In this document: one piece after another, positions 17,360 through 22,888 of the stretch
How the letters are laid out: each line of letters opens with the position of its first letter
Position numbering within the stretch: the stretch's first letter is position 1
Source of the DNA: Escherichia phage ECD7
Sequence record: NC_041936.1
DNA: 64,000 nucleotides
Strand: one strand, 5' to 3'
The notes under the pieces: model-generated
The model's input: the letters and a program-made list of their open reading frames with translations, nothing else
The model's database searches: none
Told to the model about the DNA's origin: nothing
Translations under genes and position numbers: made by a program

Positions 17360-17758
17360 TTAAGCCAATCGAGTGAGTTTATAAATTGTTTTAAAGCATA
17401 GAGCTTTGATATCGTCTAAAACGCTCTGTAACGAGCTATCAACATCATTATAAATCTCACTAGCCATTTGCGTTAACTCTTGCAAATAGGCAATTTCGCT
17501 CATCTCCTTGCGGACGACCAACGTTGGCTGATAACGACCAGTGATCCCAATATTGGTTTCAGTGAAATCATCAACCAATTCTTGCATTTCAAGATAGAAC
17601 TCTTCTAGAGCCTTATGTTTTGCATAAGATCCAGGACCAGTTACCCCAAAATGCGCAGAATGCATATAAGTAACACTCATCAGACATTCACCGATAAAGC
17701 GGTCAACTTTATTAGCTTTCCCCTCTTCGGACGTCTTTCGAAAATCACTGAATTTCAT
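17360..17758 (-). CDS. Dps/ferritin-like protein (putative)
   Basis: ORF 17360..17857 trimmed to MKFSDF; HSAHFGVTGPGSYAKH...EEFYLEMQELVDDFTE has the His-x12-His and Asp/Glu spacing of a Dps ferroxidase site. Confidence 0.45.
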   Translation of the reverse strand: MKFSDFRKTSEEGKANKVDRFIGECLMSVTYMHSAHFGVTGPGSYAKHKALEEFYLEMQELVDDFTETNIGITGRYQPTLVVRKEMSEIAYLQELTQMASEIYNDVDSSLQSVLDDIKALCFKTIYKLTRLA

Positions 17759-18047
17759 GTTCTCGATTCTCCATATTATGCAACATAACAAACTGTTGTG
17801 CGGCATATTCCCCCATAATAAAACACTGCTTAGAATCCATACATTTACTACGAGCATACATCTTCATAATATGGGCATGAAATTTCTGGCTGGTTTCAAT
17901 GGAAGGAGATATTTTGTTTACATATACTATCATTGCACCGTCGAAATAATCAGTAAAGTCACCAGTTGGATCATATTGATCAGCACTGACACTTCCGACC
18001 GCAGTCAAGCATATTGCCGCTGTTAGAGTTTTACGAATAAATGACAT
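17745..18047 (-). CDS. secreted/periplasmic protein, rI-like (putative lysis-inhibition regulator)
   Basis: 100 aa; N-terminal signal peptide MSFIRKTLTAAICLTAVGSVSA; two-Cys C-terminal region resembling T4 rI; sits next to tk as rI does in T4. Confidence 0.45.
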   Translation of the reverse strand: MSFIRKTLTAAICLTAVGSVSADQYDPTGDFTDYFDGAMIVYVNKISPSIETSQKFHAHIMKMYARSKCMDSKQCFIMGEYAAQQFVMLHNMENREHEIQ

Positions 18048-18055
18048 AAGTCATT

Positions 18056-18096
18056 CCCCCAGATTAAAAATATTCAGTTATATTTATAATCTGGGG
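18056..18096 (-). promoter_or_regulatory. 10-bp stem hairpin (CCCCAGATTA..TAATCTGGGG) containing a late-promoter TATAAATA box (18081-18088) and overlapping the SD of the rI-like gene
   Basis: Inverted repeat between the tk stop and the 18047 start; TATAAATA read on the minus strand; SD GGGGGA lies in the 3' stem arm. Confidence 0.5.
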
Positions 18097-18115
18097 CTTT
18101 ATTTATGATTAACTC

Positions 18116-18712
18116 TTATTTGGTAGTACCGTCAATAAAATGTTTACGGCACACAGAGACATATTTATCCTCTGCACCAACTTCTATTTGAGCACCATCG
18201 CGAATAACATTACCCTCTTTATCTACACGAAGGACCATTGTTGCTTTCTTGCCACAATGACAAATACCCTTCATTTCGACCAGTTTATCAGCAAATGCCA
18301 TTAATGCCGCAGATCCTTCAAATAGATTGCCCTGAAAGTCGGTGCGAAGGCCATAGCACAGTACAGGGATATTTGCATCATCGACAAGCGCACACAAGCC
18401 TAAAACATGCTCTTTAGTCATAAATTGGGCTTCATCTACAAATACAGCATCAGGACGCCATCGATCCGGTCTACGCTTACCTAACGATTCACGATAAACC
18501 AAATCGAAAAGATCATCCGATTTAGTGAAGGTGATCGCTGGAGCACTTAGACCAATTCGGGAAACAACTTCACTTTCTGAATCTCGATTATCAATCGCTG
18601 GCTTAAGAATTAATACTCGCATATCACGTTCGGTATAGTTATAAGCACTTTGTAACAGAGAAGTTGATTTGCCAGCGTTCATAGATGCATAGTAGAAATA
18701 TAGTTGCGCCAT
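18116..18712 (-). CDS. tk: thymidine kinase
   Basis: 198 aa; P-loop SMNAGKST, VFVDEAQF, C-terminal Zn motif CHCGK...CRKH. Confidence 0.9.
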   Translation of the reverse strand: MAQLYFYYASMNAGKSTSLLQSAYNYTERDMRVLILKPAIDNRDSESEVVSRIGLSAPAITFTKSDDLFDLVYRESLGKRRPDRWRPDAVFVDEAQFMTKEHVLGLCALVDDANIPVLCYGLRTDFQGNLFEGSAALMAFADKLVEMKGICHCGKKATMVLRVDKEGNVIRDGAQIEVGAEDKYVSVCRKHFIDGTTK

Positions 18713-19005
18713 TAATTAATCTCCAAAAATCCAGCAAGACCTAAACCGATATAAGTCCAGATACAAAGGAAAAAGAAGCAAACACCCATAGCAAAGATAA
18801 ATCCGCGTAGTGTCTTTGGATAACCTACCCAATATTCCCGACCATCTTCTAACCGGATCAACTTATTGCCTTGCGAGTCCATATCAACTACAACATGTTT
18901 ATTTCGAGATTGCAATAGATATTGTTTTACAATCTCTACACCCGCCATAATAACAATAACGAAAATAAAAGTCCACACAACAAGATTAATGATAGTCTCA
19001 AGCAT
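18712..19005 (-). CDS. hypothetical membrane protein
   Basis: ORF track 97 aa; two hydrophobic helices. Confidence 0.45.
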   Translation of the reverse strand: MLETIINLVVWTFIFVIVIMAGVEIVKQYLLQSRNKHVVVDMDSQGNKLIRLEDGREYWVGYPKTLRGFIFAMGVCFFFLCIWTYIGLGLAGFLEIN

Positions 19006-19240
19006 TTTCTATCACCTCCACCCAATCAGGTGTTTCCTGAAAGACTCCTTCACCTTCATGATGGTCGCAACCTTTATTGCTGCAATACATCCACCAATCC
19101 CACATTCCCCACGGTAAACGCTGCATATCGTCGTTACAGCAAGTGAAGATGATAGGCCAACCACATCTACCACAACGGCAGTTTTCCTTCATGTGTGCGG
19201 TATTAGGCTTCTTCATAGATGACTCCAATATAATCGACAT
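18998..19240 (-). CDS. hypothetical Cys-rich protein
   Basis: ORF track 80 aa; CRCGRCG...CCNDD...CSNKGCDHH. Confidence 0.4.
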   Translation of the reverse strand: MSIILESSMKKPNTAHMKENCRCGRCGWPIIFTCCNDDMQRLPWGMWDWWMYCSNKGCDHHEGEGVFQETPDWVEVIENA

Positions 19241-19443
19241 TTACATTTAGGGCAATGCGGTTCTTTAATATAATACCCGTCTGTCTTTGGAACACTAACA
19301 GGAGCGGTTTTTATATTGTATTCAGTGAAACAACGAAAACAAGTTACGTTTTCTACAGACTGACGTTTCACCCAATCACCGGAATATAGATCATTTTTAT
19401 TTGTCATATTCAACCACCACAATGTTAATGTCTGGAGTAGCAA
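19213..19443 (-). CDS. hypothetical zinc-ribbon protein
   Basis: ORF track 76 aa; CFRC...CPKCKC. Confidence 0.4.
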   Translation of the reverse strand: MLLQTLTLWWLNMTNKNDLYSGDWVKRQSVENVTCFRCFTEYNIKTAPVSVPKTDGYYIKEPHCPKCKCRLYWSHL

Positions 19444-19852
19444 TATTAATGATCTCTTCTACACATTCCCACTCAAGGCCACCGATACCGCAACCGATTT
19501 TAGGAATATAGAAAGGCTGTATAGCACCCTCAAAAACATCATTGAGAGACTCAAATCCTTTCAGGATAGCACCATATTCAGCATTTGGACCCGGTCGGAA
19601 TTTGGTATAGAGATTCACCCCGCACCAGTTATAACCATTAACTTGATGCGTCCAGACACTAAACCCACCCAGCTTTTCGACCTTACCGCGAGAAGTTTGC
19701 TTGTCAATCTCTAACGCTTGCGGGAACTCTTTCGCGATCTTCGCAGCAATACCAGCGCCCATAGTATGAAAACAATTACAACCATGAATTAAATGACCGT
19801 TTCCTTGTTTAAACAGGGCGATGAGATCGCCCTTTACAGTATCAATAATCAT
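19397..19852 (-). CDS. macro-domain-like protein (putative ADP-ribose binding/processing)
   Basis: 151 aa; GDL...IHGCNCFHTMGAGIAAKIAKEFP...IPKIGCGIGGL parallels the macro-domain pattern; SD GAGGTTTATATT. Confidence 0.45.
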   Translation of the reverse strand: MIIDTVKGDLIALFKQGNGHLIHGCNCFHTMGAGIAAKIAKEFPQALEIDKQTSRGKVEKLGGFSVWTHQVNGYNWCGVNLYTKFRPGPNAEYGAILKGFESLNDVFEGAIQPFYIPKIGCGIGGLEWECVEEIINIATPDINIVVVEYDK

Positions 19853-19867
19853 AATATAAACCTCTCA

Positions 19868-20227
19868 TTAGTCACGGGAAGACAACCCAGCCATAAAACG
19901 GCTTAACAGTGTGTCGCGATAAGCAAAGCATAATTGCTTATCAGGAGCAGTATCACACAAGTTGCGTTTTGTTTTAGCAAAGCTGGCAATACTCAGATCC
20001 CATGCTCGATTTTTTCGTTTTTCGTCTCGACCTTGTTTGTATGCTTCATCAAGTTCGAGCGCGATAAAATCACTACACATGTTATCATCATCACAGAAAG
20101 TTTTAATGATCTTTTTGTTGATCTCAAATCCTTTGTATTCAAACTTTGGATAAGGGCGCTCATTACTAGCAAGCGCACCAGCAGAGAACATCATAGCAAT
20201 CATAGCAATTATTGTCAACTTTTTCAT
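19868..20227 (-). CDS. secreted hypothetical protein
   Basis: 119 aa; signal peptide MKKLTIIAMIAMMFSAGALA; several Cys. Confidence 0.45.
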   Translation of the reverse strand: MKKLTIIAMIAMMFSAGALASNERPYPKFEYKGFEINKKIIKTFCDDDNMCSDFIALELDEAYKQGRDEKRKNRAWDLSIASFAKTKRNLCDTAPDKQLCFAYRDTLLSRFMAGLSSRD

Positions 20228-20234
20228 ATATTCC

Positions 20235-20825
20235 TCAATAGCGTTTAGTCTTAAGAATGCCTTTACTCTTTAGATGGTTAGCCTTTTTTAGTACGTCATC
20301 AGCATAACCTAATCCGGCTTTATAGTTCCATCCAGCATTGTAAGAAGCTAGCGCGAGTCTGATATTACCGTTTCGAATATCCAGCCAGTATGCTAACTCA
20401 TCCATCGCGTAGAATGCAGAAACCTCGCGATTCATGATAAAGTTGATAGTCTGGCGATCACTCATTTTAACACCGCGCTTTGCATTTTTCGCTTTCACCG
20501 TTTTAAGGTAATTTTGAAATAATCCATAAGCATGATGATTTTTCTTTGGTGCTAAGTTTGCACCCGCGCTTGATTCTTGCCATGCGATACCCGCCAGGAT
20601 GTGACCTAAACCCTTTCCGTTATAGCGAATATTCGGATGGTACTTTTTCAACTTACCGCTTTTCTCAAATTGCTCGCCGTATTGATAGGCGAAATGTAAA
20701 TTATCTAGTTGGTGTGCTGTAAAGTTGTCTATCGGCGCTTTTTTGATCGGTGCGCTAGTCGATGCGTGTGTAGCACCAACGGCTAGTGACAGACTCAATA
20801 CTATCGCTTTTAGAACTTTTAACAT
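20235..20825 (-). CDS. secreted lytic transglycosylase-like protein (SLT domain)
   Basis: 196 aa; signal peptide; SLT motifs AWQESS, GLFQ and SYNAGWNY. Confidence 0.6.
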   Translation of the reverse strand: MLKVLKAIVLSLSLAVGATHASTSAPIKKAPIDNFTAHQLDNLHFAYQYGEQFEKSGKLKKYHPNIRYNGKGLGHILAGIAWQESSAGANLAPKKNHHAYGLFQNYLKTVKAKNAKRGVKMSDRQTINFIMNREVSAFYAMDELAYWLDIRNGNIRLALASYNAGWNYKAGLGYADDVLKKANHLKSKGILKTKRY

Positions 20826-20859
20826 TAATTTCTCCTGTTTGGCTTAACTTTCTGATTTC

Positions 20860-20888
20860 ATAATATAGCCCTATCACCAGAAAGTCAA
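20860..20888 (-). promoter_or_regulatory. early promoter TTGACT-17-TATTAT
   Basis: Between the regB stop and the SLT-like gene start. Confidence 0.45.
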
Positions 20889-20911
20889 GCATTATTTTTA
20901 ACCAATTTCCA

Positions 20912-21334
20912 TTATTGGTCTACCTTCAAAACAACCGCCGACATTTTACCCGCCAGTCGTTTTGGATTCTCTATAATCATTCGGCAGCATAGACCGTGAT
21001 ATGGCTTACCCTCTTCGATTAGATCTACTGTCATCCCGATCCACATGTTACCATCAGTAATTTCTAATCGATTAGGTCGGTTTTCCATTTTCAGGAAGTC
21101 GAAGATCTCCGGCAAACGAGTTTCTATCTTATTGAATAGTTCCATTGTCTTATGTTCATCGATATGACGATCGGTTAGACGGTCGATCATATGCGGACTA
21201 AAGCGAATGAAAATATACTCGCCGTAACCATCATTCAAGCACTTTTCTTTGATCTGCGCATTGGTTTTGCGCATTTCGGTTTCGAAGAATCTACGCAGCT
21301 TACTACGGCGAACATGTACGTTAATTGTTTCCAT
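20912..21334 (-). CDS. regB: RegB site-specific endoribonuclease
   Basis: ORF 20912..21376 trimmed to METINVHVRRSKLRR; RLEITDGNMW and CCRMIIENPKRLAGK match T4 RegB. Confidence 0.85.
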   Translation of the reverse strand: METINVHVRRSKLRRFFETEMRKTNAQIKEKCLNDGYGEYIFIRFSPHMIDRLTDRHIDEHKTMELFNKIETRLPEIFDFLKMENRPNRLEITDGNMWIGMTVDLIEEGKPYHGLCCRMIIENPKRLAGKMSAVVLKVDQ

Positions 21335-21338
21335 TTTA

Positions 21339-21674
21339 TTATCCTTTCTTAAACAAATTGCGAATCCAGTATACAAACGGGATCTCTTTAAACTTGAATT
21401 TCTCTATAGTTAATTCTTTAGTAGCAAGATGAATACCATAAGCATCATGTGTCACGATATGCCATTTTCTATAGTCCAAATGTGAACAACCGTCTGGATC
21501 TAGGTTAATAAGAGTTTCTCGCTCACTAGGATTATTTTTCCACAATTTTGTAATAGGATCGCACATAATTCGACCTAGCGTACCATGAATAATCTCACAA
21601 CGGTAAAGTTTTCCAGCAGTGAGATAGGCGCACCCGTCATAGTCGGTATAAACAAACACTTCTTTAACACTCAT
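21339..21674 (-). CDS. hypothetical protein (small paralog family with 21732..21992 and 21974..22168)
   Basis: ORF 21339..21731 trimmed to MSVKEV behind AAGGAG; shared GY..D..G......L...C.HLD..W motif. Confidence 0.45.
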   Translation of the reverse strand: MSVKEVFVYTDYDGCAYLTAGKLYRCEIIHGTLGRIMCDPITKLWKNNPSERETLINLDPDGCSHLDYRKWHIVTHDAYGIHLATKELTIEKFKFKEIPFVYWIRNLFKKG

Positions 21675-21702
21675 TTTAATACTCCTTTGTTTCGATGGGG
21701 GT

Positions 21703-21731
21703 ATATTACTACCCCCGTTTTGTTGTGTCAA
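21703..21731 (-). promoter_or_regulatory. early promoter TTGACA-17-TAATAT with stem-loop GGGGGTA/TACCCCC around the -10
   Basis: Upstream of the 21674 start; SD AAGGAG. Confidence 0.5.
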
Positions 21732-21992
21732 CTACTTTTTCAAGATTTTTTTAATTGCGTTCCAAAGACCTTTATTCTCAGGTTGTTTTGGTTCTTCGAT
21801 CAGTGTCCATGTTCGACCGTCTAAGTGTGCACAATTTTTAAGACAAATAAAAATCTGGTGTCCATTATCATCACGGATATAACCACTATTCGCAAATCTT
21901 TCATGTGGTGTATATTCATACAGTGTATTTGGTGTAATATACTTGCGGTTACTATAAGGTGTCATTACATATTTCATGGTACTAACTCCCAT
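21732..21992 (-). CDS. hypothetical protein (paralog)
   Basis: ORF track 86 aa. Confidence 0.4.
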   Translation of the reverse strand: MGVSTMKYVMTPYSNRKYITPNTLYEYTPHERFANSGYIRDDNGHQIFICLKNCAHLDGRTWTLIEEPKQPENKGLWNAIKKILKK

Positions 21993-22168
21993 TTATCACC
22001 GCGAAGATGAGAACATCCACCATCAAGAAGGATCGTAATACGAAACCCCGCATCATCTTCAATATACCCGATTGTCGGTGGATTTTCGTCGTCTCGTGCC
22101 GGGGTAAAATCATACATCTTTCCCGGTGTGATATCATTGCCTTTATTGCTATTGGTATAAACTTGCAT
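21974..22168 (-). CDS. hypothetical protein (paralog)
   Basis: ORF track 64 aa. Confidence 0.4.
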   Translation of the reverse strand: MQVYTNSNKGNDITPGKMYDFTPARDDENPPTIGYIEDDAGFRITILLDGGCSHLRGDKWELVP

Positions 22169-22189
22169 TTTCTTAATCTCCTATATTAA

Positions 22190-22888
22190 CTAACCACGGG
22201 TATAGTGTTCCAGAACAACTGTCAGATGAATATATTCTAATAGATCTTTCCAAAAGTCAACATCTGGTTCTTCCGGCATACCGTTTTTCTTTGCCTCTTC
22301 ACGCGCGAGTTTAACACGCTCGTAGAGGTCTTTCAATTCTTCCCGCACATTATCAAATGTTCTTTCTCCTAACTTACACGCTAAAATCGAAGAACGTCGT
22401 GCGAGCGGGAATTGTAGATCACCTGTCTGGTAGATTTCAAGTAGCTGATAACCAACACGCAGAGCATGAGAAAGATCTTTCCAGTTACTGAAATACTTTT
22501 CCGATTTGGCTACCTGTTTCTTGAGATAACCAGACAAACCCCACATACCAACATGATAGAATTTATCGCGATGTGTTCGGATGTATTCCCATTCTCTGGA
22601 GGATTCGATCAACATGTTACTAGGCGCGTGCACCATGTCAATAGCGCCGATATCGCCTTTACATGCCAGATTGATAAACCGTTTTAGACTGAACATATTA
22701 ACGTCAATATCGTCTTTGGTGTTCTTGATCCCTTGACCGCTAGTGCTTTGATCATAGTGTTCTTTCATCGATCCTAAGATAATTTCTTTCGCAGTCGGAA
22801 CAAAGATACCACGATAATCTTTATCTGAATTTTCAGTATCAAGGCCGTATAAGTGAGATCCGAAGACCATTTTAACCATTGTATGCAT
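22190..22888 (-). CDS. nucleotidyltransferase-fold protein (pol-beta-like NTase superfamily), function unknown
   Basis: 232 aa; N-terminal VFGSHLYGLDTENSDKD matches the GS-x(9-13)-DxD NTase signature. Confidence 0.5.
   Translation of the reverse strand: MHTMVKMVFGSHLYGLDTENSDKDYRGIFVPTAKEIILGSMKEHYDQSTSGQGIKNTKDDIDVNMFSLKRFINLACKGDIGAIDMVHAPSNMLIESSREWEYIRTHRDKFYHVGMWGLSGYLKKQVAKSEKYFSNWKDLSHALRVGYQLLEIYQTGDLQFPLARRSSILACKLGERTFDNVREELKDLYERVKLAREEAKKNGMPEEPDVDFWKDLLEYIHLTVVLEHYTRG

Follow-up and report, generated by a model that had tools for sequence, protein, structure and literature searches.

Macro domains occur in ~41% of myoviruses (PMC9503650), and the function of one of them has been reported for phage T4. 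A transposon-sequencing screen (HIDEN-SEQ) of T4 on a DarTG2-expressing host returned tk.4 as the single significant gene; a clean tk.4 knock-out turned out to be sensitive to DarTG2, and tk.4 was given the new name adfM, from 'anti-DarT factor Macrodomain' (bioRxiv 10.1101/2025.11.20.689424). The evidence on T4 tk.4 comes from this 2025 preprint and consists of genetics only. A further factor had been predicted in earlier work, in which T4 without adfA and adfN retained its resistance to DarTG2 (PMC11825919). Another phage protein, PhiKZ gp104, also named AdfM (Cell Rep 2026, PMC13309987), is a stand-alone macro domain of a DarG-like lineage that counters DarTG2 and is imported into the phage nucleus. 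In vitro, gp104 strips ADP-ribose from DarT2-modified TNTC DNA (PMC13309987).

Related proteins have been characterized in cellular organisms. SCO6735 of Streptomyces coelicolor (PDB 5E3B) was shown to hydrolyse thymidine-linked ADP-ribose on DNA efficiently and to protect against DarT, with Gln85 and Asn27 being needed (PMC9411070). Gln85 is held in place by Asn27, both Q85A and Q85E lose all activity, and the residue is equivalent to Lys80 of T. aquaticus DarG and to Lys84 of TARG1 (PMC9411070). The Lys-type DarG carries out the same hydrolysis of thymidine-ADP-ribose as SCO6735. DarG of DarTG2 (T. aquaticus, M. tuberculosis; PDB 5M31/5M3I/7OMU) is a protein of ~340 aa with a C-terminal DarT-binding domain, encoded beside darT. 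Human TARG1/OARD1 (PDB 4J5R) acts mainly on Glu/Asp-linked protein ADP-ribose.

Here, we describe the counterpart of these proteins in Escherichia phage ECD7. In our estimate, with a probability of roughly 65%, it is an orphan antitoxin-like eraser of the thymidine-ADP-ribose marks that DarT2 puts on replicating phage DNA. The discovery is not a new one, as annotations of the gene exist and a function has been reported for T4 tk.4, its orthologue. The sole new detail on this gene is a singleton change at a catalytic position, Lys84.

The tk.4 gene of ECD7 and its surroundings

The window, i.e., the whole analysed stretch of 64,000 nucleotides of Escherichia phage ECD7 (NC_041936.1), belongs to Krischvirus (the RB49 group). 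The 3.5 kb around tk.4 share 98-98.7% DNA identity with 57 RB49-group (Krischvirus) phage records. The gene occupies positions 19397-19852 of the minus strand (stop codon included) and encodes a stand-alone macro domain protein of 151 aa, identical to ECD7 YP_009602056.1 / ASJ80184.1. The codons read from the sequence place the ATG at 19850-19852 and the TAA stop at 19397-19399, and direct reading also reveals a Shine-Dalgarno GAGG at 19861-19864 (minus strand), with 8 nt between it and the ATG. A gap of 15 nt, in which the Shine-Dalgarno element lies, separates the ATG from the stop codon of the preceding gene vs (19868-19870). Having a 15-nt gap and a Shine-Dalgarno sequence of its own, tk.4 looks co-transcribed with vs. 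The peptides quoted by the sequence-only reading were all found in the protein: GDL at residues 8-10, IHGCNCFHTMGAGIAAKIAKEFP at 22-44, and IPKIGCGIGGL at 116-126. The open reading frame is genuine and no chance one, as follows from its Pfam Macro match, its match to PHROG 335 (E = 3e-62), 302 homologues in a collection of 5.8 billion proteins, and tblastn matches in 2,734 phage records. A minus-strand frame at 19459-19554 and plus-strand frames overlapping tk.4 (e.g., 19401-19511) were rejected as short and without support. In a promoter and terminator scan of 18000-22500, promoter-like sites numbered 20 (expected, 13 ± 4), and no site in this interval could be convincingly assigned to tk.4. 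The gene lies within a long leftward block of early-type genes.

The window, RB49, and T4 share the gene order tk, three small open reading frames (tk.1-3 in T4), tk.4, vs, vs.1, regB. T4 Tk.4 (155 aa) falls into the same PHROG and shows 44% identity to the ECD7 protein over the full length (E = 1e-44). With this shared gene order and full-length identity, the ECD7 protein is orthologous to T4 Tk.4 by both position and sequence. The names in use differ: RefSeq calls the ECD7 protein 'phosphatase' and UniRef 'Macro domain-containing protein'; the JGI name is 'O-acetyl-ADP-ribose deacetylase'; the RB49 annotation reads tk.4, 'contains A1pp phosphatase motif', and 'macro domain protein' is the name in other phage records. 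The 'phosphatase' label in RB49-group records should be replaced by 'macro domain protein, Tk.4/AdfM family, probable anti-DarTG2 ADP-ribosylglycohydrolase'. As a gene, tk.4 is of little importance beyond annotation. Correct naming is of some practical value in predicting which therapeutic phages, ECD7 being one of them, are able to grow on DarTG2-carrying strains.

The location between tk (18116-18712) and regB (20912-21334; Pfam REGB_T4, E = 2e-48) had been recognized correctly from the sequence. The additional statement that the gene shares a neighbourhood with acb1, a nucleotidyltransferase gene, and two methyltransferase genes is loose. On the RB49 map, the nrdC.11 nucleotidyltransferase gene is indeed near, at ~2.4 kb, whereas 57B/acb1 is ~10.7 kb away, dam ~9 kb, and the second methyltransferase gene ~24 kb. 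Around tk.4 lie vs, vs.1 (SLT), and regB on one side and tk and the genes of two phage Zn-binding proteins on the other.

Some features of these neighbours deserve mention in their own right. Two small Cys-rich phage zinc-binding genes lie directly downstream of tk.4 on the minus strand, at 19213-19407 (PF23903, E = 1e-23) and 18998-19240 (PF23895, E = 9e-34). The former begins 11 nt ahead of the stop codon of tk.4, an arrangement suggestive of translational coupling. On the other side, vs (valyl-tRNA synthetase modifier, 19868-20227) and vs.1 (20235-20825), both on the minus strand, encode proteins with signal-peptide-like N-termini (MKKLTIIAMIAMMFSAGALA and MLKVLKAIVLSLSLAVGATHA, respectively), and vs.1 contains an SLT lytic transglycosylase domain. 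Export would seem strange for a 'tRNA synthetase modifier'. In T4, vs was the most depleted gene in minimal medium, as determined by HIDEN-SEQ (bioRxiv 10.1101/2025.11.20.689424). Just upstream of regB there are three tandem small minus-strand open reading frames, 21342-21674, 21735-21992, and 21977-22168 (RB49p095-097). They are paralogues, 29-36% identical, with the common motif ITPGKLY..TP...GYI.DD.G..I.I.L..GC(S/A)HL.G.KW.L, and a Pfam search of the three gave no match.

Fold, class and active site

The ECD7 protein consists of a macro domain alone and belongs to the TARG1/DarG/SCO6735 (ALC1-like) class. The Pfam Macro profile PF01661 matched it over positions 1-118 of 118 with E = 6e-7 and 29.8 bits vs. 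a gathering cut-off of 22. A sequence search of the PDB returned M. tuberculosis DarG (5m3i, 2e-8) and TARG1 (7e-7), and the profile of the Tk.4 family matched BT1257 of Bacteroides (2e-15), SCO6735 (4e-14), DarG (1e-13), and TARG1 (3e-13). The AlphaFold2 model, built from an 89-sequence alignment, has a mean pLDDT of 96.4 and a pTM of 0.91 and displays the three-layer alpha/beta/alpha macro fold. The top Foldseek matches of this model in the PDB are the macro domains of TARG1, Poa1p, and DarG, with E = 3e-11 to 3e-9. The macro-domain assignment of the sequence-only reading has thus held up, since profile, sequence, and structure searches all give the macro fold and no different one. The motifs to which it had likened the protein (GDIT / NAAN / GGGV / G.STGIYG) are those of MacroD-type domains, however, and not of the class to which the protein belongs.

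The presence of Poa1p among the best structural matches bears on the possibility that the protein is a small-molecule enzyme, which would act like yeast Poa1p as an ADP-ribose-1''-phosphate phosphatase, or else as an O-acetyl-ADP-ribose deacetylase, and would clear by-products of RNA repair or sirtuin reactions. Poa1p is structurally as close to the ECD7 model as DarG is; 'phosphatase' is what the database name implies, and deacetylase activity is also found in TARG1/OARD1. However, both names are transfers from the domain family and do not originate from tests. The only known phenotype of an orthologue is DarTG2 sensitivity (bioRxiv 10.1101/2025.11.20.689424), and SCO6735, the closest biochemically studied Gln-type relative, acts on ADP-ribosylated DNA (PMC9411070). 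We therefore consider a small-molecule substrate to be decidedly improbable and prefer the eraser of DNA-linked marks.

The comparison with DarG defines the architecture of the protein. The sole match among NCBIfam and PADLOC models is the N-terminal macro half of DarG: NCBIfam NF048014 scores 54 bits vs. an equivalog cut-off of 250, with model positions 2-141 of 338 matched. The score stays far below the cut-off because the C-terminal DarT-binding domain is absent, and the NCBIfam search yielded no equivalog for the ECD7 macro protein. Unlike DarG, the ECD7 protein is a macro domain alone, is phage-encoded, and has no adjoining darT. In the comparison with T4 Tk.4, the DarG model scores 36 bits in T4 vs. 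56.6 in ECD7. The two orthologues have the motifs HGCNCFHTMG, NLYT, and PxIGxGIG in common.

The putative ADP-ribose-binding loops and Asn26 are conserved, as judged from the alignments. The motif His23-Gly-Cys-Asn26 (HGCN; 19775-19786, minus strand) provides Asn26 and His23, corresponding to Asn27 and His24 of SCO6735. In the 89-sequence alignment, N26 is invariant and H23 nearly so; among further representatives, they are present in 134/134 and 129/134, respectively. The predicted first Gly-rich loop of the ADP-ribose cleft, Met31-Gly-Ala-Gly34 (19751-19762, minus strand), aligns with MGAGIA of TARG1 and MGKGIA of DarG. Its M31 and G34 are invariant in the same alignment, and G32 and A33 are nearly invariant. 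The second (phosphate-binding) Gly-rich loop, Pro117-Lys-Ile-Gly-Cys-Gly-Ile-Gly-Gly125 (19478-19504, minus strand), likewise assigned by alignment, corresponds to GCGLDRL of TARG1 and GVGNGGL of DarG, with P117, G120, and G122 invariant and G125 nearly invariant.

Against TARG1, the best Foldseek match (E = 3e-11, ~30% identity), the protein has the KGDL, MGAGIA, and IGCG motifs in common, and Lys84 of TARG1 aligns with Lys84 of ECD7. The Lys84/Asp125 dyad of TARG1 is nevertheless absent, since the position of Asp125 is taken by Gly124. SCO6735 and Bacteroides BT1257 (2FG1/2AFC) are ~23% identical to the ECD7 protein. The SCO6735-type site is marked by Gln85, held by Asn27, and by Gly128 in the phosphate-binding loop. 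The ECD7 protein has the Asn (N26) and the Gly loop; Gln is found in the family consensus, the ECD7 allele having Lys in its place. Lys34 and Lys89 of SCO6735 are not conserved in the ECD7 protein, which has Ala33 at the first of these positions.

Probable function, spread and origin

The deletion test on DarTG hosts that had been proposed for this gene has in effect already been done on the T4 orthologue, the tk.4 knock-out being DarTG2-sensitive (bioRxiv 10.1101/2025.11.20.689424). By analogy, events in an ECD7 infection may run as follows. Host DarTG2 would release DarT2, which would ADP-ribosylate thymidine in single-stranded DNA and thereby block replication. The macro protein would bind the ADP-ribosyl-thymidine adduct in its Gly-rich cleft and hydrolyse the N-glycosidic bond, so that the DNA would be restored. 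That the ECD7 protein has the same activity as its relatives we infer from the literature on T4, SCO6735, DarG, and PhiKZ gp104, and this transfer is limited by identities of 44% to T4 Tk.4 and 26% to PhiKZ gp104.

The latter identity extends over 129 residues. As a phage stand-alone macro domain countering DarTG2, gp104 resembles the ECD7 protein and also has Lys (FPTK) at the catalytic position. The assumption that the PhiKZ and T4 'AdfM' proteins form one family was rejected, given this low identity and a catalytic Lys in gp104 vs. Gln in T4. The name AdfM has been given to two distinct phage macro-domain lineages, that of T4 Tk.4 and that of PhiKZ gp104.

The Tk.4 family is large. At E <= 1e-3 it comprises 17,737 clusters of 50% identity, and at E <= 1e-30 it comprises 1,294. 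A darT-like partner was sought beside the bacterial relatives in 80 loci, and no neighbour family occurred in more than 9 of them. The largest neighbour clusters resemble ordinary lineage-specific genes, judged by appearance and without a profile library. The absence of a shared neighbour family in the 80 loci indicates that the present-day relatives are not embedded in DarTG operons, and we rejected the idea that the synteny of today still reveals a toxin-antitoxin origin, there being no recurrent neighbour.

This distribution is also relevant to another proposal of the sequence-only reading, which connected the protein with the phage's own ADP-ribosyltransferases. The protein would then erase or read the ADP-ribose (or RNAylation) marks made by Alt/ModA/ModB-type transferases and so tune host take-over. 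Such a role is favoured solely by the fact that T4-type phages encode both ADP-ribosyltransferases and a macro domain. The marks made by Alt, ModA, and ModB are arginine-linked, whereas macro domains of the TARG1/DarG class act on ester-, phosphate-, and thymidine-linked ADP-ribose, and we know of no cleavage of arginine-linked ADP-ribose by this class. In addition, the family is widespread in stand-alone form in bacteria without a conserved partner, and it occurs in many phage groups. With the arginine linkage outside the known range of the class, this role appears very improbable, and removal of DarT2 marks remains the reading that we favour.

The Krischvirus Tk.4 proteins are 66-68% identical to the copies of rV5-like phages and 44-48% identical to those of T4-like phages. 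Their greater closeness to the rV5-like copies suggests that tk.4 has been exchanged horizontally between phage groups. As a side observation, the 90%-identity cluster of the macro protein also lists 132-aa members (e.g., P0122), which are the unrelated rI.-1 Dps-like protein (window 17360-17857); their inclusion appears to be an artefact of database clustering or look-up.

Lys84 at a position of glutamine

Codon 84 (19601-19603, minus strand), in the motif N-L-Y-T-K, is AAA (Lys) in the window and CAA (Gln) in RB49. In pairwise and profile alignments, the residues opposite position 84 are Lys84 of TARG1, the FPTKK lysine of DarG, and the NMIGQ glutamine of SCO6735 and BT1257. Thus, the Gln of SCO6735 and BT1257 is replaced by Lys in ECD7, and T4 has LYTQF where ECD7 has LYTKF. 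The catalytic Lys of DarG (K80) has its counterpart in K84 of ECD7 and not in the rest of the Tk.4 family. A first alignment of 123 rows (the ECD7 protein and TARG1 included) has Gln in 118 of them, and in the 89-sequence alignment it is present in 87 of the 88 other rows. Further 50%-identity representatives have Gln in 133/134 cases and Lys in 0, and all 80 bacterial loci have Gln. Among 80 IMG/VR viral-contig loci, Gln was found in 76 and Glu in 1, and the remaining 3 are misaligned at this position yet contain TQY, which brings Gln to ~79/80. Altogether, Gln occupies position 84 in ~99% of the sampled relatives, including T4 Tk.4 and RB49.

Within Krischvirus, the count of alleles rests on 35-mer BLAST searches of the phage collection. 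The 35-mer of the window around codon 84 was perfectly matched in none of 56 Krischvirus records. When the RB49 35-mer served as the query, 46 of the 56 were 100% identical and the other ten gained one match each; these gains show that all 56 records carry C, i.e., the Gln codon. Exact 23-mer scans of IMG/VR found neither the AAA nor the CAA allele and are uninformative on allele frequency. The exact K84 protein is recorded from one contig only. K84 could be either a true variant or an error in sequencing. The plus strand has AATTTGG in the window vs. AATTGGG in RB49, with the difference at window position 19603 and at the junction of two homopolymer runs, and we infer that a paired homopolymer miscall at this T-run/G-run junction may be behind K84.

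If the change is real, its effect on the protein has to be weighed. The K84 allele may be impaired, considering that SCO6735 Q85A and Q85E are inactive and that residue 84 is a near-invariant Gln. Such an allele could be decaying in the absence of DarTG2 selection, or else the protein could protect mainly in a non-catalytic way, by binding DarT2 or ADP-ribosylated DNA. The latter would agree with the finding that inhibition of DarT in vitro persists in the catalytically dead SCO6735 Q85A, DarG K80A, and TARG1 K84A and is strongest for SCO6735 (PMC9411070). An impaired allele would fit a substitution at a 99%-conserved position that is recorded from a single contig, the other amino-acid polymorphisms among the Krischvirus copies all being in variable columns, where the commonest residue reaches 14-60%. 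However, H23, N26, and both Gly loops, which make up the remainder of the active site, are intact, and Lys also occurs in an unrelated family member. Furthermore, Lys is the catalytic residue at the same position in DarG, TARG1, and PhiKZ gp104, so it may suit hydrolysis, and the change from Gln is not obviously inactivating. Taken together, mainly non-catalytic protection or an impaired allele seems unlikely to us, and we retain catalytic removal of thymidine-linked ADP-ribose as the probable activity.

The opposite possibility is that K84 is both genuine and selected. The ECD7 allele has the configuration of DarG, with Asn plus Lys and with Gly rather than Asp at the position of TARG1 Asp125. 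A selected K84 would mean that, on the Tk.4 scaffold, an SCO6735-type site, which is water-mediated and Gln-positioned, has given way to a lysine site of the DarG/TARG1 type. This scenario is quite unlikely in our judgement. Were it true, the mechanism or substrate range could shift, e.g., to other DarT variants or to ester-linked protein ADP-ribose, and both catalytic solutions of this macro class would be one mutation apart. Should K84 prove real and functional, it would represent a natural experiment on how Gln-type and Lys-type active sites relate to each other. An unrelated distant member of the family, P0019, also has Lys at this position, and its near relative P0021 has Gln; this independent occurrence of Lys would fit a selected K84.
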